Origin: Cellvibrionaceae bacterium | GTDB lineage: Bacteria > Pseudomonadota > Gammaproteobacteria > Pseudomonadales > JAILXX01 | DNA: 64,000 nucleotides | Assembly: GCA_045430295.1 (NCBI GenBank) | Contig: JAILXX010000005.1 | Location: 110,893-174,892, forward strand | Reading direction: 5' to 3' | Shown: positions 1,151 to 61,559 of the stretch, piece by piece | Layout of the letters: each line of letters begins with the position of its first letter | How positions within the stretch are numbered: the stretch's first letter is position 1 | Program-made: the position numbers and the translations under genes | Notes under the pieces: model-generated | The model's input: only the letters and a program-made list of their open reading frames with translations | What the model was told of the DNA's origin: nothing | Database searches by the model: none

Positions 1151-1198
1151 ATGGTGCCCAGAGGCGGAATCGAACCACCGACACGAGGATTTTCAATC
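1151..1198 (-). repeat. attL: displaced 3' fragment of tRNA-Phe (tRNA nt 30-76 plus 1 nt), exact copy of 6207-6254
   Basis: 48/48 identity, read directly from both loci. Confidence 0.9.
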
Positions 1199-1337
1199 GC
1201 ACCCTATTAAAAAACGGCAATAACACACAGTATGTCATGTCTCGTAACTATCTGATTTTATTGGTTAGGTAGGTATCTTGGTGGTGTGTTTTCTGGCTCT
1301 TTGTTGCCGGTTAGTGTGACATGAGTGTGACGTGATA

Positions 1338-1955
1338 TTAGAAATCTCCTTTGGCTATAAATGAAACGGAGTCTATTTCGATGAAGCGCTTATCGGACAT
1401 GCATGAAAGCCTAGCATCAGGCTGTAAATCACCAGAAAAAACAACAGTCACTTTTCGGTGGGTCATGTCCTCAAATTTCTTGTATAGCTCCTTAATCGAT
1501 AGCTTCTCTACTAAGTAGCCATTTCTCTTGAAGCCAAGATGTAGAGCATTTAAGGGTTCTAGCTCGTGATAATCTAGTTTTTGCAAAAGTGCATAGCATA
1601 TGTTTTTTGCGTTTTTATACGAACGTTTTATAGAGCGCCTGGGGCTTATAGTTGATGAAAGCTCTATAGAGAATTTTCCGGCGTCCCAGTCGAGGTTGAC
1701 GCTTGGGTATGCATTTATATATGCATTTTTGACATCGGATTTTGTGAGTTCAATGGTGGTGTGTAGGCTGGTTATTTCATGCTTAGAGCTATAGGCTTTT
1801 TTAATTCTCATATTCTCTTGTAGAAGAAATAAGTCCATCATTGATGGGGGTTCGTCCATCATACTTTTCTGAATTTTGGTGGGCTCAGATTGAGCGAGAG
1901 AGGAAACTAAAATTGAAAGAGATACTAGGAAAAGTGCTTTCTTGCTGTATGTCAC
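1338..1955 (-). CDS. Hypothetical secreted protein (island ORFan)
   Basis: GTG start 6 nt after an AGGAAG RBS. The N-terminus 'KKALFLVSLSILVSSLAQS' looks like a Sec signal peptide. I recognise no family. Confidence 0.6.
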   Translation of the reverse strand: MTYSKKALFLVSLSILVSSLAQSEPTKIQKSMMDEPPSMMDLFLLQENMRIKKAYSSKHEITSLHTTIELTKSDVKNAYINAYPSVNLDWDAGKFSIELSSTISPRRSIKRSYKNAKNICYALLQKLDYHELEPLNALHLGFKRNGYLVEKLSIKELYKKFEDMTHRKVTVVFSGDLQPDARLSCMSDKRFIEIDSVSFIAKGDF

Positions 1956-2129
1956 GTGACTTCCTTTTAATGGGGTTATGGCAGATATATAGAAAGGTGT
2001 CCTTTAAAGGGCTTTATTGAAAATGCTAAATTATCCCTGACTAGGGCTTTATAGAGACTAACAAATATATCTGGAAAAGTAGACTAGTCCTTCAGAGGGC
2101 TCAGGTTGAACCCTCCTAGAGACTGGGAG

Positions 2130-2534
2130 TTATTTAAGGGAAGGGTGTTGGTGGAGAGGGATGGGTGGAGTTCTGGTTGGGTTTAGTTCTAGCTTACCTC
2201 CGCACTCGTCAATAGAAAGCCATGTAAAGGCGTATAAGCTGCACTTGTTTAAGCCTCCTTGTCGTGTGACTAATACAAGGTCTGCGCTAATTAGGGCCTT
2301 TAAGGCGCGCCTCAGGGTGCCGTTAGATGTCCAGCCTCTAAGCTTCATAATCTTCATAGTTACGCAAAAATCCCCGTTATTGTGCCCGTTATATTGTCTA
2401 GCCATATCCACAAGCAGCGTCTTCGCTGGGTGTGGGAGGCTGATATATGCCGGTAAGTCTAATAATTTATGATAGAGCTGGAAGAAGGGCGGTGAGCCGC
2501 CCCTCCCTTTGATTTTTTGCCTTGTTCTAGCCAT
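2130..2534 (-). CDS. Small winged-helix-like island protein (unknown function)
   Basis: I prefer the ATG at 2534 (MARTRQKIKGRGG...), which overlaps the upstream stop by 8 nt. The pattern '...NNGDF..T...M...GW.S..TLRRALKAL....LV..TRQG' resembles small phage/island wHTH proteins. This is recollection only. Confidence 0.5.
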   Translation of the reverse strand: MARTRQKIKGRGGSPPFFQLYHKLLDLPAYISLPHPAKTLLVDMARQYNGHNNGDFCVTMKIMKLRGWTSNGTLRRALKALISADLVLVTRQGGLNKCSLYAFTWLSIDECGGKLELNPTRTPPIPLHQHPSLK

Positions 2535-2946
2535 CCTCTGTCCCTCCGTCCTTGAGAGTGGTAATATTTTTTTTAGTCTTACTGCGTATGTCTGTAGTTT
2601 GGCTAAGAGAGAGGGAGGTGGCCGCCTCTTTTTCTCTTCTCCTTTTTTCCCATTCAAAAACCTTTAATGAGTATTCTTTGCCTCTTTTTCCTGCTTTAGA
2701 AATATTAGGTATTTCAAGGAAGTAGACACAGAATGTGGCATTTCTGCCTGTGGGGTCATTGGTTTTTGATGTTCTTCGTTGGCTGGTGATAGGCCATTGG
2801 TATTTATTTCTTAATCGCTCTATACAGGCCGCTAGGCGGTATGTGGATGCCTCATGCTGGAATGTTAGGTGGGTAAGCCTTTCGGCTCTGAGAAGCCTAG
2901 CTAAAGCTCTTGAAGGGAGTTTTCCAATATTTGGGGGGTATTTCAT
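2527..2946 (-). CDS. Helix-turn-helix protein (phage/island HTH type)
   Basis: 'STYRLAACIERLRNKYQWPI' matches the R-L-x-x-R-I-x-x-L-R-x-x-G-x-x-I recognition-helix pattern of phage HTH proteins. The start overlaps the upstream stop as TAATG, behind a GGAGGAG RBS. Confidence 0.55.
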   Translation of the reverse strand: MKYPPNIGKLPSRALARLLRAERLTHLTFQHEASTYRLAACIERLRNKYQWPITSQRRTSKTNDPTGRNATFCVYFLEIPNISKAGKRGKEYSLKVFEWEKRRREKEAATSLSLSQTTDIRSKTKKNITTLKDGGTEDG

Positions 2947-3167
2947 TATTCAGCTCCTCCCTGAATAGCTTGGTTATCTAGCCACTCTTCAAATGCATCA
3001 AGGTCGATAAGTACTTTTCGGCCTGCCCGGCGGATACAGCTAGCAAAGCCATTCTGCTCGCGATTGAAAATTAGCCAACGGATACTGTTTTCAGTGAGGT
3101 TGGAGTCGGGGTAATGTGAAGGAAGGTTTTTTACTGAGCTGTAACGTTTAGGGTTGTTCATAATCAA
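2946..3167 (-). CDS. AlpA/excisionase-family DNA-binding protein
   Basis: 73 aa. '...IRWLIFNREQNGF...IRRAGRKVLIDLDAFEEWL' is the typical excisionase/AlpA HTH with a C-terminal 'F..WL'. It lies inside an integrase-bearing island. Confidence 0.7.
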   Translation of the reverse strand: MIMNNPKRYSSVKNLPSHYPDSNLTENSIRWLIFNREQNGFASCIRRAGRKVLIDLDAFEEWLDNQAIQGGAE

Positions 3168-3269
3168 ATCTCTTTATTTAAAATGAGATTTGATTATTGA
3201 GAGTTGGTGGGTTTATGTATAAGGGTAAAGGCGGGTGTAAATAATTTGTGTATTTACCCCTTGTGAGTC

Positions 3270-3905
3270 CTAAATTTTATTTTTTCTCGATTTTTTTAGG
3301 TAGTTTTTAATACTCTCTAGCCGGATGTCTTCATTATCCTGATAATGGTTTATTTGCATTTCATTTAAGCACGAATCAATAAATCCAATCTGGGTGATAC
3401 CACGAATCTTATTTCTATGCTTACTTAGCTTTGTGTAAGTTGAAGCTAGTTCAGAGATAGCTTTTTCATGAGGGTATGCTGTAAGAGGTCTGGTTGCGAC
3501 TTTGTCTTTTATAGTTTTAGCGATATGTTCGCAGCGATAAGCTAAGTATGGGAGTTTATCTTTGATTATGTAGAGTTCTTGATATGAAAGGCCTACGCTA
3601 TCAGAAAGCTTCATATTTTGATTTATGTTTGCCTTAGAGAGAAGGCGAGATAGCTCGTGTGCTACAGTGGAAACCTCTAGAAAATACTCTTCTTCCTCAT
3701 TTTTTGTTGGGGTTTTTCTAATATGTTCTTGCGATAAAAGATAGCTTACCCGAATGGCGTTAAGCTTTTTTGCTAAATTATCATCCGATATTCCTTTCAA
3801 GGAGAAAGCTAATTTAAGTTCTCGGCAAAAGCTTGGGGATATGATGTCATCGTGCCGAATGATTACGTCCGACATATCTTTGACTGCTTTTTTCTTTTTC
3901 ATCAA
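3270..3905 (-). CDS. Hypothetical protein (island ORFan), translationally coupled to int
   Basis: The start overlaps the integrase stop by 4 nt. Very AT-rich and lysine-rich, with no motif I recognise. Confidence 0.55.
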   Translation of the reverse strand: MMKKKKAVKDMSDVIIRHDDIISPSFCRELKLAFSLKGISDDNLAKKLNAIRVSYLLSQEHIRKTPTKNEEEEYFLEVSTVAHELSRLLSKANINQNMKLSDSVGLSYQELYIIKDKLPYLAYRCEHIAKTIKDKVATRPLTAYPHEKAISELASTYTKLSKHRNKIRGITQIGFIDSCLNEMQINHYQDNEDIRLESIKNYLKKSRKNKI

Positions 3906-4942
3906 TCAAAAATTCCAGAGTTCATTCGTTCTAAAACTTTACTCGTATGTTGCTCTGATAGGTGAGCGTAGCGCTTAACCATTTGTAATGTTTTATGTCC
4001 AAGGATGTCGGCAATTTCAGCTAAGGATGCGCCATTCATGGCTAGGTAGCTTGCTGCGGTGTGGCGGAGGTCATGGAATTTGAAGTCTTGTATGTCAGCT
4101 TCTTTTAGCGCTTTTCCCCAGGGGGTGCGGATGAAAACAGGGGCCGATGGCTTCGTTTCACTGTAAAACACTAAGTCAGTGTCTAATCTACGAACTTTGG
4201 AAAGCTCTTCAATAAGTTCTTTAGCGTGTCCCACTAAAGGGACTGCGCGGCGTTCTCCATTTTTCGTTTCATGTAGAGTGATATACCCCCTGTTGAGGTC
4301 TATATCAGGCCATCGCATGCCTAGGACTTCCATTTGTCTCATGCCTGTTGAGAGGGCTAAAACAACAACGGGGTATAGCTGTTTGCATGGGGAGGTTTTA
4401 CAGCAGGCCAATAACCTTGCTCGTTCTTCGTCACTCAGAAACCGCACTCGTCCACGGGGTTCTTTTGGCTTTCTGACCTTTCTCATGGGGTTGTCATCAA
4501 GCCATTCCCACTCATTAACAGCGACTGTAAACGCGTGAGACAGTGCGGCCATATAACGAACTACGGTTGCGGGTTGTCGGCCTTTATGGAGCTTATCTCT
4601 GGTTTCCGCTAGAAGAGGTGGGGTGATGTCTGCAAGAGAGCGGTAGCCTAGCTCTTTTTTCCACCATGTAAGTTGGCGGCCTTGAGCATTCATGCTTTTA
4701 GGCTTGGAGGGCAGAACATCGCGAATATAGCGGTCTATGAGTTCTTCTAAAGTCCTTCTCTTGGCTTCTGTTGTTTTAAAATGGCGCCCTTCGCGAATGG
4801 CTGATTCTGTTTGTTGTACCCACCGCTTTGCATCCGTTTTTCGGTTAAAGGTGGCTGTTTGCATGGGAAAGCCTTTAAGCCTTACCTGTGCTTGGTAGCG
4901 TATTTCACCGTTGTTAGTTCTTCTTTCTCGGATGGTTGCCAT
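3902..4942 (-). CDS. int: Tyrosine recombinase / phage-type integrase
   Basis: Box I 'LSTGMRQMEVLGMRWPDI', box II 'HDLRHTAASYLAMNG', and 'LGHKTLQMVKRYAHL' carrying the catalytic Tyr. The N-terminal SAM-like 'IRYQAQVRLKG' also fits. Confidence 0.92.
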   Translation of the reverse strand: MATIRERRTNNGEIRYQAQVRLKGFPMQTATFNRKTDAKRWVQQTESAIREGRHFKTTEAKRRTLEELIDRYIRDVLPSKPKSMNAQGRQLTWWKKELGYRSLADITPPLLAETRDKLHKGRQPATVVRYMAALSHAFTVAVNEWEWLDDNPMRKVRKPKEPRGRVRFLSDEERARLLACCKTSPCKQLYPVVVLALSTGMRQMEVLGMRWPDIDLNRGYITLHETKNGERRAVPLVGHAKELIEELSKVRRLDTDLVFYSETKPSAPVFIRTPWGKALKEADIQDFKFHDLRHTAASYLAMNGASLAEIADILGHKTLQMVKRYAHLSEQHTSKVLERMNSGIFD

Positions 4943-5140
4943 TTGGCTGCGTGACTCGTACTTGTAGCGAAATTCAACAGAGAGCTAAAAAGTACAACAG
5001 ATAGTAAATTATGGCAATAAATGATTATAAATCCCCGTGTGTTGATTTCTTGTTGCTGTAAAAGCCTTTTATAACAGTAGGTTGCGTTTGTGGTTGGTCG
5101 GAATGTTGATGATTGTCACATATATGACGTAGTGGGGCGG

Positions 5141-5860
5141 TCAGTGAGAGGTGGTGTCGTAGTCTTGAGAGACCTGTTGGTAGAGTTTGCTATTCCAAAG
5201 ATGGAGGCTATTTATGCTAGAGCGAGGGAAGGCCATGTGGTATTGGCGTATTTCTTCAACCGCGTGTGACTGCTCTCCGAGGTTTTCAAGTAGGTTAAAA
5301 ACAACGTTATATGCAGTGGATACATTAAATTTCAGAGTGTCTTCGGTTCGATAGCCGCTCAGAAGTGGAATTATGGTGATGTAGCTATTACTACTTGGCT
5401 CGAACCCGTCTGCGAGTATACCTACATATACTTTCCTGTTGTTTAGGGATATTGCTATGGGCTGTAGGGTTTTCATGCTTTCCCAAAGGATTGCATCAAA
5501 ATCATCTTTCTGCATTGCCCTTTTAAATGCTTTAGCCTTTTTCTCTTCTGTAAGGCAATAATTCAGAGCGCCTGCTGCGCACCAAGCTATGACAGGAGGG
5601 GATAGTGCGGTGTATAGAGGGATATTGTCTTTTTCTATAAAAATGAGAGGCTTAAAATCCAGCCATATAGGTATCAGGAAGGATAAATTTGAAAGAAGTA
5701 TGGCTAGTATTGTGAACGGGAAGCCAAAGAGGACTACCCTTAGATAAAATCTTTGACCGTCATCCCTAGGGAATGAGTAAGAATATGGGATGTACTTGTC
5801 TGTGAAAAGGAACCCTGCGGCAGCCGTTGCAACAATGAAAAGCGATAATGCTGAAAGCAT
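5141..5860 (-). CDS. Hypothetical membrane protein (three N-terminal hydrophobic helices plus a soluble C-terminal domain of about 130 aa)
   Basis: Hydrophobic segments are 'LSLFIVATAAAGFLF', 'VVLFGFPFTILAILLSNLSFLIPIW' and 'SPPVIAWCAAGALNYCL'. It starts 7 nt after the upstream ORF. I recognise no family. Confidence 0.6.
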   Translation of the reverse strand: MLSALSLFIVATAAAGFLFTDKYIPYSYSFPRDDGQRFYLRVVLFGFPFTILAILLSNLSFLIPIWLDFKPLIFIEKDNIPLYTALSPPVIAWCAAGALNYCLTEEKKAKAFKRAMQKDDFDAILWESMKTLQPIAISLNNRKVYVGILADGFEPSSNSYITIIPLLSGYRTEDTLKFNVSTAYNVVFNLLENLGEQSHAVEEIRQYHMAFPRSSINSLHLWNSKLYQQVSQDYDTTSH

Positions 5861-5866
5861 TACTTA

Positions 5867-6064
5867 CTATAACGTCTCTTTATCTTGTGTGGGAAAGTTG
5901 GTTTTAAACTCTTGTGCGATTTCTTTCATTCTATTCAAGAATTTATCAGATGTTACAGCTTGCTTGAGGCTAAGGTGAGCGACACCTCTGGCGCGGATAG
6001 TGTAGGCAGAGTCGGGCAAGCTGTCGTGAAACATCGAATTGCTGTTGTGTGCTTGTTTTTGCAT
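5867..6064 (-). CDS. Small hypothetical protein (65 aa; a 101-aa reading from TTG 6172 is possible)
   Basis: The ATG at 6064 is preceded by a GGGGG RBS with a 4-nt spacer. The gene is tightly linked to 5141-5860. I recognise no family. Confidence 0.45.
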   Translation of the reverse strand: MQKQAHNSNSMFHDSLPDSAYTIRARGVAHLSLKQAVTSDKFLNRMKEIAQEFKTNFPTQDKETL

Positions 6065-6207
6065 GTGACCCCCTATATCTAACTTCATTGTGGCACACTT
6101 TTGTCTAATTTCACCAGTCTTAGCTGAAACTAATCTTTCACTGTGACAGTGGTGTGACATTGCTAGATACAAAAAAGGCCTAGCAGAAGCTAAGCCTTTG
6201 ATTTTTA

Positions 6208-6283
6208 TGGTGCCCAGAGGCGGAATCGAACCACCGACACGAGGATTTTCAATCCTCTGCTCTACCGACTGAGCTATCTGGGC
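6208..6283 (-). tRNA. tRNA-Phe (anticodon GAA)
   Basis: The reverse complement reads GCCCAGATAGCTCAGTCGGTAGAGCAGAGGATTGAAAATCCTCGTGTCGGTGGTTCGATTCCGCCTCTGGGCACCA. It is 76 nt, folds as a cloverleaf, has GAA at positions 34-36 and encodes the CCA. Confidence 0.97.
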
Positions 6284-7963: not shown

Positions 7964-9748
7964 ATGCGTCGTAACACCTACACCGAGTTGGAAGGTAAAG
8001 ATATTGATTGGTCAGTGCTGAAATCCCTCTGGCCTTATTTATTGGAATTTAAAGGGCGAGTTGCACTGGCTTTGGGTTTGATGGTCTGTGCGAAATTGGC
8101 CTCAGTAGGCTTACCTTACGTGCTGAAATTTATTGTGGATGATCTCGATAAAGTGGACGCCACCGCAGCTGCGGTGGCCGCGCCCATTGGGTTGGTATTG
8201 TTCTACGGTTTGATTCGTTTTTTAACCACGCTGTTTAATGAACTGCGGGATACGGTATTTGGTCGTGTGACTGAGCGGGCTATGCGTCGAATCGGTTTAA
8301 GCGTTTTTCAGCATCTGCATCAACTGGATATTGATTTTCATTTAAGTCGTAAAACAGGAGGGCTTTCCCGTGATATTGAACGAGGCACTAGCGGCATTAA
8401 TTTTTTGATGCGCTTTATGGTGTTCAATATTGTGCCCACCTTGTTAGAGGTTTTTTTAATCGCCGGTATTTTATTTTACAGCTTCGGTTGGCTTTATGGC
8501 GTGATTGTATTGGTGTCAGTGGCGGCCTATGTGTACTTTTCTATGAAGGCAACGGACTGGCGTTCAGCGTTTGTCCGTGAAGCAAACCAAGCGGATTCTT
8601 CCAGTAGCACAAGGGCGATCGATAGTTTACTAAATTTTGAAACCGTTAAATATTTTACCAACGAAAAATATGAGGCGGACCGTTATGATGAAAATCTAGC
8701 GGATTGGGAAAAAGCAAAACGAAAGAATCGGTTGTCACTGTTTGCGCTCAATGGAGGGCAGTCTTTGATTATTGCCTTGGCAATGACTTCTATGCTGGTC
8801 TTAGCCGCTGTAAATACCGTTGAGGGAGATATGACCCTTGGTGATTTTGTTCTTGTTAACGCCTTTATGATGCAATTGTTTATTCCCTTGGGTTTTCTGG
8901 GGTTTGTGTATCGGGAAATAAAAAGTTCTATGGTTAACATTGAAGCCATGGTGGGGTTGTTAAAGGTGCGACCGAAGGTGGTGGACAAGCCCGATGCAAA
9001 GCCTTTGAAAAATCCTCAGGGAGATGTGGTTTTTGATGGTGTGGATTTTAACTACGATAGCGATCGTCAGATTCTGAAACAGATTTCCTTTGCCTTGCCC
9101 GCAGGTAAAAAAGTTGCCGTGGTAGGCGAAAGCGGCTCTGGGAAGTCCACCGTAGTGAAATTACTTCTCCGCTTATACGATACGGTCAATGGTCGTATCA
9201 CTATTGATGGTGAAAATATTGCGGAAGTCACCCAGCAGTCTTTGCGGGCCTCTATTGGTATTGTGCCGCAAGATACGGTGCTGTTTAACGACTCTATTTT
9301 CGAAAACATTCGCTATGGTCGCCCAGGCGCCAGTGACAGCGAAGTAGAAAACGCCATTCGTATGGCTCACCTCTCCGATTTTATTGCCGCCCTGCCGAAA
9401 GGTGGCGAAACCCTGGTGGGTGAGCGGGGATTGAAGCTGTCTGGTGGTGAGAAACAGCGGGTAGCTATCGCGAGAACCATTCTCAAAGGCGCTCAGATTT
9501 TAGTATTTGATGAGGCCACGTCTTCTCTGGATAGCCACTCTGAAAAAAGCATTCTTCAGGCTCTAGGGGAAATCGAAGGGGATCATACCCGCTTGGTGAT
9601 TGCTCATCGGCTTTCCACGGTGGTAGATGCAGACAGCATTCTGGTGCTGCACCAAGGGGAGGTGGTTGAGCAAGGTGATCATCAAGCCTTATTGCAGCAG
9701 CGGGGGCGCTATGCCCACCTATGGGAGCTACAGCAGCAGGAAGCTTAA
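7964..9748 (+). CDS. ABC exporter, fused permease/ATPase (Atm1/HMT1-like)
   Basis: Six-TM N-terminal half, Walker A 'GESGSGKST', signature 'LSGGEKQR', Walker B 'ILVFDEATS'. I prefer the ATG at 7964 (MRRNTYTELEG...) over 7856. Confidence 0.85.
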   Translation: MRRNTYTELEGKDIDWSVLKSLWPYLLEFKGRVALALGLMVCAKLASVGLPYVLKFIVDDLDKVDATAAAVAAPIGLVLFYGLIRFLTTLFNELRDTVFGRVTERAMRRIGLSVFQHLHQLDIDFHLSRKTGGLSRDIERGTSGINFLMRFMVFNIVPTLLEVFLIAGILFYSFGWLYGVIVLVSVAAYVYFSMKATDWRSAFVREANQADSSSSTRAIDSLLNFETVKYFTNEKYEADRYDENLADWEKAKRKNRLSLFALNGGQSLIIALAMTSMLVLAAVNTVEGDMTLGDFVLVNAFMMQLFIPLGFLGFVYREIKSSMVNIEAMVGLLKVRPKVVDKPDAKPLKNPQGDVVFDGVDFNYDSDRQILKQISFALPAGKKVAVVGESGSGKSTVVKLLLRLYDTVNGRITIDGENIAEVTQQSLRASIGIVPQDTVLFNDSIFENIRYGRPGASDSEVENAIRMAHLSDFIAALPKGGETLVGERGLKLSGGEKQRVAIARTILKGAQILVFDEATSSLDSHSEKSILQALGEIEGDHTRLVIAHRLSTVVDADSILVLHQGEVVEQGDHQALLQQRGRYAHLWELQQQEA

Positions 9749-9857
9749 ATACCCATTCTTATTTTTCTTTTGATAAATGTAGCTCTTGAGGTTTGTGGGT
9801 GCTTACTTTTATTTTTCTCTTCGCTGTCTATAGCGTAAAAATCTCAAAAATGGACTA

Positions 9858-9884
9858 TATAGAATGCTGGGCCAGTGCCGATAA
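9858..9884 (+). promoter_or_regulatory. Candidate sigma-28 (FliA) promoter upstream of the chemoreceptor gene
   Basis: The sequence is TATA-N15-GCCGATAA against the consensus TAAA-N15-GCCGATAA. The -10 element is exact and the -35 has one mismatch. Confidence 0.35.
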
Positions 9885-10009
9885 CCTATAGGTGTCTATG
9901 GCTCTCTTGGACTCTCATTGAGGGTAATAAGGGCCCTAAGTAAAGAGTCGGAATTCGGGTCAGGTAATACGATTAGGTAGTACGACCAAGTGATACAAAT
10001 AGGTATTTA

Positions 10010-11644
10010 ATGTCTCAACCACCAAGAAAAAAGATATTCCTCTCCGCTGTGTCATTACAGGCGAAGCTCTATGTGGCTTTGGTTGTGATTGGCGTGGTGA
10101 TTGTGAGTTGGTCTGTTTATCACACGAGCAACAATGACCGTCGTCTGGCGGAAAGTTTGATAGAAGATAATCTGTGGGACAAGGCCGACGGCTATTTCGA
10201 TGGTGTGAATGCCCTAATGATCAGCGGCATGCTGGCCAATAAAAAAGTTATCCAAGACAAATTTATGCAGCATGAGAGTATGCGTGAGGTACGGATTATC
10301 CGTCATGAAAATACCGTGCGTATGTTTGGAAAAGGCGATGTGGATGCTGCAGTAAAAGACGGCATTGATCGTCGCGCCTTATCAGGGGAAAGTGTTTCGC
10401 AAATTGATGACGTCAATGGCGAGCGTGTTTTCACTGTGGCTAAGCCTTTAATCGCGACTGAAAACACACGGGGCACTAACTGCTTGCATTGCCATAATGT
10501 GAAAAGCGGTGAAATTCTGGGAGCGGTGCGTATTAGCTATTCCCTGACATCTCTGGATGGTCGTGTGGCTGCTGGTGTGCAGAAGTCTGGCATGATGCAG
10601 TTGTTGGTGATCGTGATTGCCTTTTTGGGTTTGGCCTATTTTGTTCGTGTCAGTCTCATCTGGCGTTTTAAGCGCTTACAGAAAAAATTACTGCATATCG
10701 AATCCACTATGGATTTAAATTTACGTATCAATGCCGTGGCTGATGACGAGTTAGGTGAGGTAGCAAAAGCTCTAGATCGCATGATGAATCGCTTTCAGGA
10801 AAGCATGGCTTCTGTCTCGAAGTCGGCACAGGGCTTTATGGATCAATCACAGCAGGTTCATAGCATTTCCTCGGCTACAGAAATCGCCGTGGGTGAGCAA
10901 AAGAAAGGCGTCGAAGAAGTGAGTTTGGCCGTGCATGAGTTAGAAGGTGCCGCGGCCAGTGTGCGGAGTAGTGCCCATTCTGCATCAGAAAAATCGGCAG
11001 ATACGACTCTACTTACTCAGGAAAGCATCAGTATTGCAGAGACCGCTCGAGACAGTATTTATGCCCTCAAAGATGATGTGCAAGCGGCTGCGGATGTTAT
11101 CCAAAAACTCGATGAGCGAACTCAGGCGGTAAGTGGCGTTTTGTCGGTGATTAGAGGCATTGCAGAGCAAACAAATCTGTTGGCGTTGAATGCCGCCATT
11201 GAGGCCGCGCGAGCCGGTGAGCAAGGTCGCGGTTTTGCCGTGGTTGCGGATGAAGTTCGAAGCTTAGCAACGCGCACGCAGGATTCCACAGAAGAAATTC
11301 GCTCCACTATCGATGAGCTGCAGAAGGAAGCGGCAGCCGCTGTGGCGGCTATGGAACAATCCAGTAGTGCTGCGGAAATCCGTTCGAAAGATGTTCAGAC
11401 TGTGGCGGAGAAGCTGTCAGAGATTGCCGCACAAGTAGTGGAAGTAAGCGCGTTGAACGAGCAAATTGTGGATGCGACAGATCAGCAGAATGCGGCAGCC
11501 AATGCTATTATTCAAAGTGTGGATCAAATTACAGTTGCCGCAGAACAATCTGAAAAAGAAGTCGAAAAAGGTAAGGCAATTAGTACGGAATTGATTAATT
11601 TAGCGCAAGATCTCGATACGCGAGTTAATGAATTCAAAATTTAA
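10010..11644 (+). CDS. Methyl-accepting chemotaxis protein with a CxxCH-containing periplasmic sensor domain
   Basis: Two TM segments, a HAMP region, and the conserved MCP signalling hairpin '[35 protein letters not shown]'. 'CLHCH' lies at nt 10481-10495 in the periplasmic region. Confidence 0.9.
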
Positions 11645-61369: not shown

Positions 61370-61382
61370 AGAGAGAATAGTG

Positions 61383-61559
61383 GTTCCCGGAAGTGCCGCT
61401 GTCAATTGGGCCTTGAACCAGAAGGTTCAAGGGGCGATCTTTGTGATGCATTAGGCTTTCCGTCTCGCGGACATGCACACCAACACCAGCGAAAGATTGC
61501 CGGGATAAAGATTATCGGCTCAAGGGACGTATTGACTGGCAAGCACCCCAGGAGACTTC
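61383..61559 (-). ncRNA. ssrS: 6S RNA
   Basis: The minus strand aligns by eye to E. coli 6S: '...CCCUUGAGCCGAUAAUCUUUAUCC...', '...GCCCCUUGAACCUUCUGGUUCAAGGCCC...', and closing-stem halves GUCAAU/AUUGAC and GUGC/GCAC. A TATACT -10 lies just upstream. zapA-ssrS-ygfA synteny holds. Ends are approximate to about 10 nt. Confidence 0.85.

Follow-up and report, generated by a model that had tools for sequence, protein, structure and literature searches.

The question raised by this locus is whether a 5-kb insertion in a tRNA-Phe gene is an intact mobile element or the remnant of one and, if it is intact, how so few genes could maintain and spread it. The locus lies in a window of 64,000 nucleotides (the whole stretch of DNA that was analysed: positions 110,893 to 174,892 of the forward strand of contig JAILXX010000005.1, Cellvibrionaceae bacterium, assembly GCA_045430295.1), to which coordinates refer unless a related locus is named. 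The insertion is the footprint of site-specific integration by a small island, and we are confident that this island is an intact, active-type integrative element of a family characterised by its integrase and by the product of a small gene, orf134. With less assurance, we regard it as a minimal member of a widespread modular family that probably replicates and relies on a helper to spread.

The footprint is an exact direct repeat of 48 bp, which extends to 53 bp with one mismatch and consists of nucleotides 30 to 76 of tRNA-Phe plus one downstream base. Chance is excluded as the origin of two exact 48-bp copies that lie 5 kb apart and match the 3' half of a tRNA. The features that define the insertion are the following, attL and attR being the left and right attachment (att) sites:

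6208-6283, minus strand: intact tRNA-Phe(GAA) gene, called by ARAGORN and by Rfam (tRNA, 70.5 bits); its nucleotides 30-76 form the attL repeat copy
6207-6254, minus strand: attL copy of the 48-bp direct repeat
6174-6199, minus strand: island-borne, terminator-like hairpin directly 3' of the intact tRNA-Phe gene, an 11-pair stem followed by TTTGT
1151-1198, minus strand: attR copy of the same repeat, comprising a tRNA 3' half without its 5' half
1119-1148, no strand assigned: palindromic hairpin GCCTCGC-GATT-GCGAGGC with A7 on one side and T5 on the other, visible in the sequence and forming the core of a very stable fold of -72.5 kcal/mol

The hairpin at 1119-1148 is probably the original bidirectional terminator of tRNA-Phe, now stranded at attR; a simple terminator scan of the window did not include it among its calls. 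The insert between the repeats (1199-6206, 5,008 bp) has a GC content of 0.423 against 0.475 for the remaining window and is the lowest of all 5-kb stretches, the others having a minimum of 0.439 and a median of 0.477. The island is flanked by mutY-yggX on one side and by a gene for a TonB-dependent receptor on the other. Thus, the duplication, the hairpin with its T-run and the AT-rich insert described by the original prediction are all confirmed, and the site-specific integration that it deduced is further substantiated by a tyrosine integrase with all of its catalytic residues. The insert is filled by eight co-oriented open reading frames on the minus strand, also as predicted, which read from attL to attR as follows:

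5867-6064, minus strand: orf65, cargo gene between attL and int, 101 aa long if TTG 6172 is the start
5141-5860, minus strand: orf239, matching the phage family phrog_3630 (PHROG, 6.3e-33)
3902-4942, minus strand: int, tyrosine integrase of 346 aa (PF00589, 1e-34; phrog_1, 9e-75)
3270-3902, minus strand: orf210, variable int-coupled gene; its start and the int stop share 1 nt (TGATG)
2946-3161, minus strand: alpA-like gene, 71 aa, putative DNA-binding protein in the Xis/AlpA position, with sub-threshold HTH_17 and DUF6462 matches
2527-2946, minus strand: orf139, winged helix of HTH_39 type plus a long helix (AlphaFold2 model, pLDDT 91)
2130-2534, minus strand: orf134, winged helix of 134 aa (AlphaFold2 model, pLDDT 88)
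1338-1955, minus strand: orf205, cargo gene with an N-terminal signal-peptide-like sequence, MTYSKKALFLVSLSILVSSLAQSE...

Neighbouring genes overlap at three places: orf210 shares 1 nt with int, orf139 shares 1 nt with the alpA-like gene, and orf134 shares 8 nt with orf139. Both small winged-helix proteins that had been predicted are present, as orf139 and orf134. The integrase is the sole one of the eight proteins to which the family libraries assign a function. Motif inspection found its catalytic set complete (R200 or R208, K227, H290-x-x-R293, H316 and Y325), and the phage records compared with it, 50,697 in number, match it at 38% identity at best. Searches of the eight proteins against Pfam, NCBIfam and PHROGs revealed no capsid, terminase, primase or conjugation gene, in line with what had been claimed from the sequence. 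The accompanying claim that the island carries no replicase is probably wrong, orf134 being a likely initiator.

The closest relatives of the island all sit in tRNA-Phe, and their direct repeats start at the same base of the tRNA. Ordered by size, these islands and that of the window are:

3,922 bp, tRNA-Phe: L153, five core genes only
4,375 bp, tRNA-Phe: L099
4,421 bp, tRNA-Phe: L100
4,482 bp, tRNA-Phe: L155
5,056 bp, tRNA-Phe: the window island
5,185 bp, tRNA-Phe: L161
5,525 bp, tRNA-Phe: L002, direct repeats intact, internal stop in int
7,393 bp, tRNA-Phe: L098, Ketobacter alkanivorans CP022684, also at mutY-yggX

With relatives of 3.9, 4.4, 4.4, 4.5, 5.2, 5.5 and 7.4 kb, the idea that the element is unusually small does not hold. 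Within this tRNA-Phe clade, the integrases are 73-87% identical, the alpA-like proteins 60-72%, the orf139 products 38-59% and the orf134 products 56-79%. The core genes are open, with saturated synonymous sites and non-synonymous divergence (dN) of 0.1-0.7, which indicates purifying selection and runs contrary to decay. At least 15 loci of different genera have this five-gene core. Damaged copies were also seen. In L002, int (10001-11035 of that locus) is interrupted by the internal stop; in L005 (Microbulbifer thermotolerans DSM 19189, 8655-10894), a tRNA-Phe locus with an orf239 homologue, int matches residues 1-298 only and neither alpA nor attR was found. Contig ends near the att repeats of L099, L100, L153 and L161 were considered as a sign of polymorphism or copy number and rejected, as a multi-copy tRNA breaks assemblies in the same manner.

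Circular forms were assembled for more distant relatives. One orf134-bearing relative is represented by circularly permuted contigs from at least seven sequencing runs; two of these contigs have terminal overlaps of 28-30 nt and give a circle of 5,155 bp. A single further assembly shows this relative integrated, and the junction of the circle falls exactly at its 16-nt direct repeat, at the 3' end of a tRNA. A second relative, L189, gives a circle of 4,834 bp with a 125-nt overlap; its genes are, in order, a P4-type int, a variable gene, a bona fide AlpA (PF05930, 2e-19), then an HTH_39-like gene and an orf134 homologue, each followed by a small gene, and finally a lipoprotein gene.

A search with the integrase yielded 473 genome loci for its clade in a set of one-genome-per-species contigs, and comparison of int and alpA neighbourhoods, which the original prediction had pointed to, revealed a shared gene layout. 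The best 80 of the 473 integrases are 60-84% identical to that of the window; their sources include Gamma- and Betaproteobacteria, Legionella, Nitrosomonas, Magnetococcales and Desulfuromonas. In nearly every well-flanked locus, the integrase gene lies a few hundred bases downstream of a co-oriented tRNA gene. At least nine tRNAs are targeted (Phe, Met, Thr, Arg, Asn, Leu, Lys, Ser and Gly), and in 22 loci a direct repeat of 19-59 nt from the tRNA 3' part bounds an island of 5.0-12 kb, the islands of the clade as a whole covering 3.9-12 kb. Switching among tRNAs thus occurs at an unusually high integrase identity (at least 60%). The common layout is int, a variable gene (170-640 aa, often coupled to int), a gene in the alpA position, one or two small winged-helix genes, a replication gene and cargo.

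It is the replication slot that sets the window island apart. In 35 loci, this slot holds a DUF3987 primase, Prim-Pol plus AAA_25, Zn-ribbon/Toprim plus AAA_25, Toprim-DnaB or DnaB. In 11 other loci of the integrase set, it holds a homologue of orf134, with no primase homologue found. Overall, most relatives have a primase or helicase in this slot; the window island and at least 25 relatives have orf134 instead, and its homologues are numerous (268 proteins at E<=0.001 in a word-index protein search and 522 confirmed stretches in a metagenome scan). Two side observations concern the small genes of these islands. Ten islands (L014, L017, L020, L021, L024, L054, L060, L065, L067 and L075) encode a small DUF5681 protein, that of L075 scoring 4e-12 in Pfam, and L189 encodes a 114-aa protein with a similar GxGRPKG N-terminus and no DUF5681 score. 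The presence of capsid modules of the capsid-forming phage-inducible chromosomal island (cfPICI) type within islands of the integrase clade was also considered and rejected, as tblastn with cfPICI proteins against loci L001-L104 detected no capsid module in any of them.

What does orf134 encode? Over 52 aligned homologues, the motifs G-x-NNGD, TRQGG and C-x-GKL are invariant. The family profile, compared with the PDB, matched a RepA_N-type initiator (4pta, E=0.03), and the top PDB matches of the structural model in Foldseek were RepA_N N-terminal domains (4pql, 5kbj and 4pt7, E about 0.01), among them the Rep-iteron complex. Matches in BFVD were to a GpO N-terminal domain, a replisome organizer, a replication protein O and a RepA-like initiator. 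One family member matched phrog_186 (DnaD-like helicase loader) at 3e-6, and below family thresholds, Pfam gave Phage_rep_O for one of the 52 members (0.026) and HTH_36 for three. In the deposited record PP003913, a homologue with 39% identity carries the annotation 'replication protein O', and a primase gene comes next. Furthermore, iterons lie 3' of the orf134 homologue in L053, L080 and L090, where three to four copies of 15-21 nt are spaced by 21, 22, 43, 44 or 52 nt in arrays that begin 2-38 nt past the stop of the gene.

Homologues outside the integrase clade occupy a comparable position. IMG/VR contains 45 contigs with an orf134 homologue, usually about 3 kb from one contig end, and many of them share a downstream gene set. 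In one such contig, L146, the shared genes score as the set that cfPICIs have (capsid of HK97 type, prohead protease, portal, HNH, TerL, head-tail connector and head-completion protein). Between the int and capsid genes of L146, the orf134 homologue is the sole candidate replication gene. Fold, annotation, gene position and the iterons of relatives, taken together, tip the balance towards orf134 encoding a replication initiator that resembles the origin-binding domain of lambda O or RepA_N proteins. As orf134 amounts to a DNA-binding domain alone, such an initiator would have to depend on the host or a helper for helicase loading and priming. For the adjacent orf139, PF14090 was matched by 23 of 48 family members, and its homologues occur beside both orf134-type and DUF3987-type replication modules. 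We propose that it is a regulator.

The DNA that follows orf134 contains candidate sites for such a protein:

1977-2129, minus strand: origin-like or regulatory region, with a hairpin past the orf134 stop, short repeats and a conserved motif

Here, ATAAAGCCCT occurs twice, 35 nt apart (within 2008-2031 and 2043-2066), and an AT-rich motif of 25 nt that is conserved in the family, GACACCTTTCTATATATCTGCCATA, lies at 2001-1977 on the minus strand. In degenerate form, the motif reads GACACCT(T/A)T(A/C)TA(T/C)ATATCTGCCATA. The window and all close relatives have a hairpin, two to three element-specific short repeats and the motif within 130-190 nt past orf134, and the motif directly abuts the last copy of the element-specific repeat. 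It occurs once in the window and is kept across elements whose proteins share only 45-80% identity. It is also retained in L100 and L153, which have no same-strand open reading frame of 60 aa or more after it, and for this reason it is not simply a cargo promoter. Inspection by eye detected no properly spaced pair of sigma-70 or sigma-54 hexamers in it in either orientation. On one reading, the repeats may be initiator sites beside an AT-rich unwinding element; a regulated promoter, an origin of transfer (oriT) or a packaging (pac) site would be alternatives. As a matter of record, the motif, GACACCTTTMTATATATCTGCCATA, lies at 1977-2001 in the window and at the same place in L065, L075, L088, L098-L103 and L152-L161.

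Next to int, each relative has a gene of its own (170-640 aa) in the slot of orf210, and this neighbour overlaps int by 1, 4 or 8 nt in L100, L099 and L098. Positional homologues of orf210 at 24% identity are found in L152 and L153, and by analogy it is possibly an excision cofactor. Homologues of the alpA-like gene lie 1-2 kb downstream of int in 60 of the 86 other loci fetched with the integrase, and we propose that its product is an excision directionality factor or switch. The original prediction of an AlpA/Xis-type helix-turn-helix protein stands in so far as a small gene occupies the Xis/AlpA position. The AlpA assignment itself stays below threshold: no Phage_AlpA (PF05930) match was obtained, only 4 of 15 family members reach E<0.05, and the fit to AlpA is limited to gene position and a C-terminal GRK-VLID...W motif. 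The start of the gene is marked by a palindrome:

3160-3197, no strand assigned: inverted repeat of 16 nt, 94% complementary, which spans the alpA-like start codon and overlaps a promoter-like hexamer pair
3221-3193, minus strand: promoter-like site upstream of the alpA-like gene

An inverted repeat is present at the start of the alpA-like gene in every relative, its sequence differing from element to element. That of the window is a candidate operator or translational hairpin, and the start-site repeats fit an element-specific switch for an alpA-orf139-orf134 operon.

These observations suggest how the element might work. The integrase, together with the protein in the Xis/AlpA position and perhaps orf210, would excise a circle of 5.06 kb, as judged from the relatives. 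Excision would restore attB, in which the old terminator again comes directly after the tRNA. The expected attP junction would read ...CTAAGCCTTTGATTTTT + 48-bp att (1151-1198) + GCACCCTATTAAAAAACGG..., and the expected attB junction ...GCGAGGCTTTTTGT + 48-bp att + CTCTGCTCTACCGACTGAGC.... The alpA-like gene, orf139 and orf134 probably form one operon, because the genes overlap, with the palindrome at its start as a possible switch and with orf139 (HTH_39) acting as a presumed regulator. The orf134 product would bind the downstream repeats and the AT-rich motif and recruit the helicase and primase of the host or of a helper, so that the element would need no primase of its own. A helper would be needed for spread from cell to cell, because the island has no packaging or conjugation genes. 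The packaging of concatemers by a phage may be the most likely route of transfer, the analogy being solely with two kinds of phage-borne islands discussed below. Phage-mediated transfer is favoured because the genes of PICMI115, one such island, match those of the window island in position and because the other modules of the family are satellite modules. We nevertheless consider a phage-satellite lifestyle of the window island a tentative suggestion that falls somewhat short of an even chance.

Several results weigh against the proposed replicating, helper-dependent element. With regard to the initiator, all structural and profile matches of orf134 are weak (E 1e-3 to 3e-2), and plain transcription factors are often winged helices too; in addition, orf134 ends about 30 residues past the wing and is devoid of the helicase-loading C-terminal domain of initiators. 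Its putative target in the window comprises no more than two short repeats, exact over 10 nt and 35 nt apart, and no clear iteron array, and the 25-nt motif, searched as a degenerate pattern, had no match in IMG/VR. The alpA-like protein scores E=0.038 and 14.7 bits against HTH_17 (PF12728), for which the cut-off is 27. As for excision, both circular relatives have a P4-type integrase unlike that of the window and orf134 homologues of 46-50% identity, and 'circular' contigs could equally stem from tandem integrated copies. The exact 66-nt pattern of an empty site (tRNA 5' part, att and old terminator) was not found in metagenome contigs, and both contigs known for the source species contain the island. 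Finally, a link to a phage is wanting: the window island has no TerS, pac or cos site (a prophage elsewhere in the window was not sought), and its DNA, compared with the 50,697 phage records, gave only tRNA matches.

Some of these points would be accommodated by an integrative cassette that does not replicate, in which orf139 and orf134 are transcription regulators, the motif is a regulated promoter, and transfer is passive (through vesicles, transformation or generalised transduction). The two proteins are simple winged helices, and MarR, CodY and ArsR-type regulators are among their fold matches; the motif lies 20-40 nt upstream of the cargo start in L001, L098 and L099 and contains a TATATA box; the window has only the two short repeats; and phages are known to move islands with int and alpA that lack transfer genes (PMC12595487). 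However, orf134 homologues fill the replication slot both in the integrase family, where other members have primases or helicases, and in cfPICI-like satellites, and iteron arrays with a spacing of about two helical turns lie behind the gene in three relatives. In addition, L100 and L153 keep the motif with no same-strand open reading frame of at least 60 aa behind it, and separate circles were assembled for relatives in several samples. We therefore judge the non-replicative cassette unlikely, although it is the strongest of the alternatives to the replicating element.

An integrative mobilisable element, in which the relaxase of a conjugative element acts on an oriT of the island (possibly the 25-nt motif with its flanking inverted repeats), is less probable still. 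The size, the tRNA site, int with a small excisionase and the absence of packaging genes do fit minimal elements of this kind, and a short conserved non-coding motif beside inverted repeats is oriT-like. However, Pfam, NCBIfam and PHROGs detected no relaxase or other MOB protein, coupling protein or mobilisation auxiliary protein among the island proteins, nor do the annotated relatives have one, an oriT itself not being directly recognisable by these searches; and the DUF3987 and Prim-Pol primases, AlpA, DUF5681 and cfPICI links of the family are phage-satellite modules. The least probable alternative, a decayed and immobile remnant of a larger island or prophage with drifting genes, as the original prediction had offered among its candidates, could draw on the small size, the want of recognisable transfer or packaging genes and the existence of decayed relatives (L002 with a stop in int; L005 with a truncated int and no attR or alpA), but is now very hard to reconcile with exact 48-bp repeats, eight open reading frames, a catalytically complete integrase, a five-gene core held under low dN at saturated synonymous divergence in at least 15 loci of different genera, a 3.9-kb version that is the core alone, and relatives of the same architecture found as circles. 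The other two candidates of the original prediction, a minimalist phage satellite and a mobilisable mini-island, are both more probable than decay.

How does the island, read as a replicating and helper-dependent element, compare with known systems? Tycheposons are integrase islands at tRNA 3' ends that are moved by phages, carry defence-type cargo and have no autonomous transfer genes; they are much larger than the window island (tens of kilobases) and differ in gene order and core genes. The closest likeness is to the PICMIs of Vibrionaceae (minimalist chromosomal islands that are phage-inducible), the concatemers of which are packaged by a phage (PMC10803314). The gene order of PICMI115 is int, iolg, alpA, up1, prim and up2 (PMC10803314), and by position these correspond to int, orf210, the alpA-like gene, orf139, orf134 and orf205 of the window, respectively. 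Both kinds of island have about 5-6 kb, about six genes, no capsid or packaging genes and cargo with a probable role in phage defence (for the window island, at a guess). They differ in the replication gene, which in the window encodes a 134-aa winged helix and not a DUF3987/DUF5906 primase (none was found among the eight island proteins, the largest unassigned reading frame being 239 aa); in the site, which is tRNA-Phe downstream of mutY-yggX in a Cellvibrionaceae host and not the fis region; and in the two extra cargo genes between attL and int. The PICMI model of SatelliteFinder asks for an integrase (PF00589, PF00239 or PF07508), AlpA (PF05930 or PF12728), a primase (PF13148 or PF19263) and a location adjacent to fis (PMC10803314). 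Of these four components, the window island presents the integrase; it has no AlpA match at threshold, no such primase and no location adjacent to fis.

A second likeness is to the marine VEIMEs (integrative mobile elements that are encapsidated in virions), which are defined by concatemers inside virions and include elements with no recognisable replication genes (PMC9618062). Shared traits are monomers of less than 5 kb to 16.8 kb, integrases, AlpA or excisionases, diverse replication modules, the absence of capsid genes and, for some, integration in bacterioplankton. The likeness of the window island and its close clade to VEIMEs is one of size and gene content.

The order int-AlpA-primase is the left-hand module of P4-like satellites, phage-inducible chromosomal islands (PICIs) and PICMIs (PMC10085698, PMC10803314). 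Many islands with an integrase of the same clade have int, a gene in the AlpA position, a DUF3987, Prim-Pol or Toprim primase-helicase and a tRNA site, and resemble P4-like or 'type C' PICI-like satellites (PMC10085698). In contrast, the window island has no primase and about half the size of P4, and its proteins gave no Pfam, PHROG or NCBIfam match to psu, delta, sid, epsilon or the alpha-primase. Likeness to cfPICIs (PMC10085698) resides in the orf134 homologues, 33-53% identical, that belong to the integrase-proximal replication and regulation module of contigs of 10-12 kb. The window island differs in its integrase type and in lacking capsid and terminase genes, and no packaging or capsid module of PICIs or cfPICIs (terS, capsid, portal or TerL) was found in the window. 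The island I55 and its relatives, which use a tmRNA site and are transduced by jumbo phages (PMC12595487), share an integrase, a position at a tRNA or tmRNA 3' end, the absence of autonomous transfer genes and defence-type cargo, but they are tens of kilobases long, have alpA at the far end and possess another set of core genes. Among initiators, those of the lambda O, replisome-organizer and RepA_N types resemble orf134 in fold, in weak profile matches and in the iterons beside the gene in relatives, whereas orf134 consists of the DNA-binding domain of about 130 aa and has no C-terminal domain to contact a helicase loader. One further record touches this comparison. PP003913 (L104; 'Pseudomonas phage vB_Pae_U1', 16.2 kb) carries int, a cox-like gene, small genes, the orf134 homologue, a small primase and Rhs cargo. 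It was deposited as a phage, has no structural genes and looks like an island or satellite.

The remaining three genes are cargo added at both ends of the core, because L153 consists of the five core genes alone. The original prediction counted four genes with no known relatives. This is no longer true of orf239, with its match to phrog_3630, or of orf210, with its positional homologues; it holds for the other two, as orf65 had no family match in the libraries and no homologue in any related locus, and orf205 no homologue among the relatives. The N-terminal part of orf239 is hydrophobic (residues 1-21 and 37-69, by hydropathy). Several temperate-phage records have homologues of it close to their ends, at 23-27% identity; a word-index search with it gave three proteins only, and among the related loci it has a homologue in L005 alone (35% identity). 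We regard it as accessory cargo. The slot of orf205 is filled by lipoproteins in L098, L099 and L189. More generally, the product of the cargo gene behind the motif is often a lipoprotein or a protein with a signal peptide, without relationship from one element to the next (window 1338-1955; L098 10585-11226; L099 3525-4250; L189 2218-2751), which recalls the superinfection-exclusion lipoproteins of prophages. At a guess, orf65, orf239 and orf205 may encode envelope or secreted proteins that exclude phages, orf239 being one candidate. PADLOC gave no meaningful match to a defence system for any of the eight island proteins.

The interest of these results lies mainly in the family and less in the single copy of the window. 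PICMIs set the minimal phage satellite at int, alpA and a primase (PMC10803314). If orf134 is an initiator, an origin-binding domain of 130 aa can replace the primase and a five-gene unit of 3.9 kb suffices, which would lower the known minimum for an integrative, replicating and helper-dependent element. We can only tentatively suggest, with the odds somewhat against it, that the family is a widespread class of minimal satellites or hitchers, 3.9-7 kb in size and devoid of a primase, with a five-gene life cycle and a winged helix of about 130 aa as the sole replication function. Our search of the literature, incomplete in coverage, yielded no description of a primase-less island family with the order int, variable gene, xis, HTH_39 and winged helix. 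The family would escape models of the SatelliteFinder type that require a primase and an AlpA recognisable by Pfam, and small islands of this sort may therefore have gone uncounted within the helper-dependent mobilome. In addition, an integrase clade that is at least 60% identical across at least nine tRNA targets is a natural system for the reprogramming of att specificity, and the family offers a compact int-xis-rep-ori backbone for tool building, with a cargo slot in which lipoproteins or secreted proteins are frequent.

Lastly, the flank beyond attR has an unusual structure outside the island:

1088-1181, no strand assigned: long imperfect hairpin in flank DNA (RNA fold -72.5 kcal/mol, z = -10)

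Its 45-nt arms embed the attR fragment and the old terminator, and beyond the terminator loop lies an inverted copy of the last 33 or so nucleotides of tRNA-Phe (82% match). A second, degenerate copy of 'CCA + terminator' is found 178 bp off, at 938-978. The inverted tRNA copy and the copy at 938-978 may have been left by older att sites or by a convergent tRNA; a search of 938-1181 in Rfam gave no credible family. Far from the island, at 61380-61557 on the minus strand, the window contains an ordinary housekeeping gene, that of 6S RNA (ssrS, Rfam 98.6 bits).

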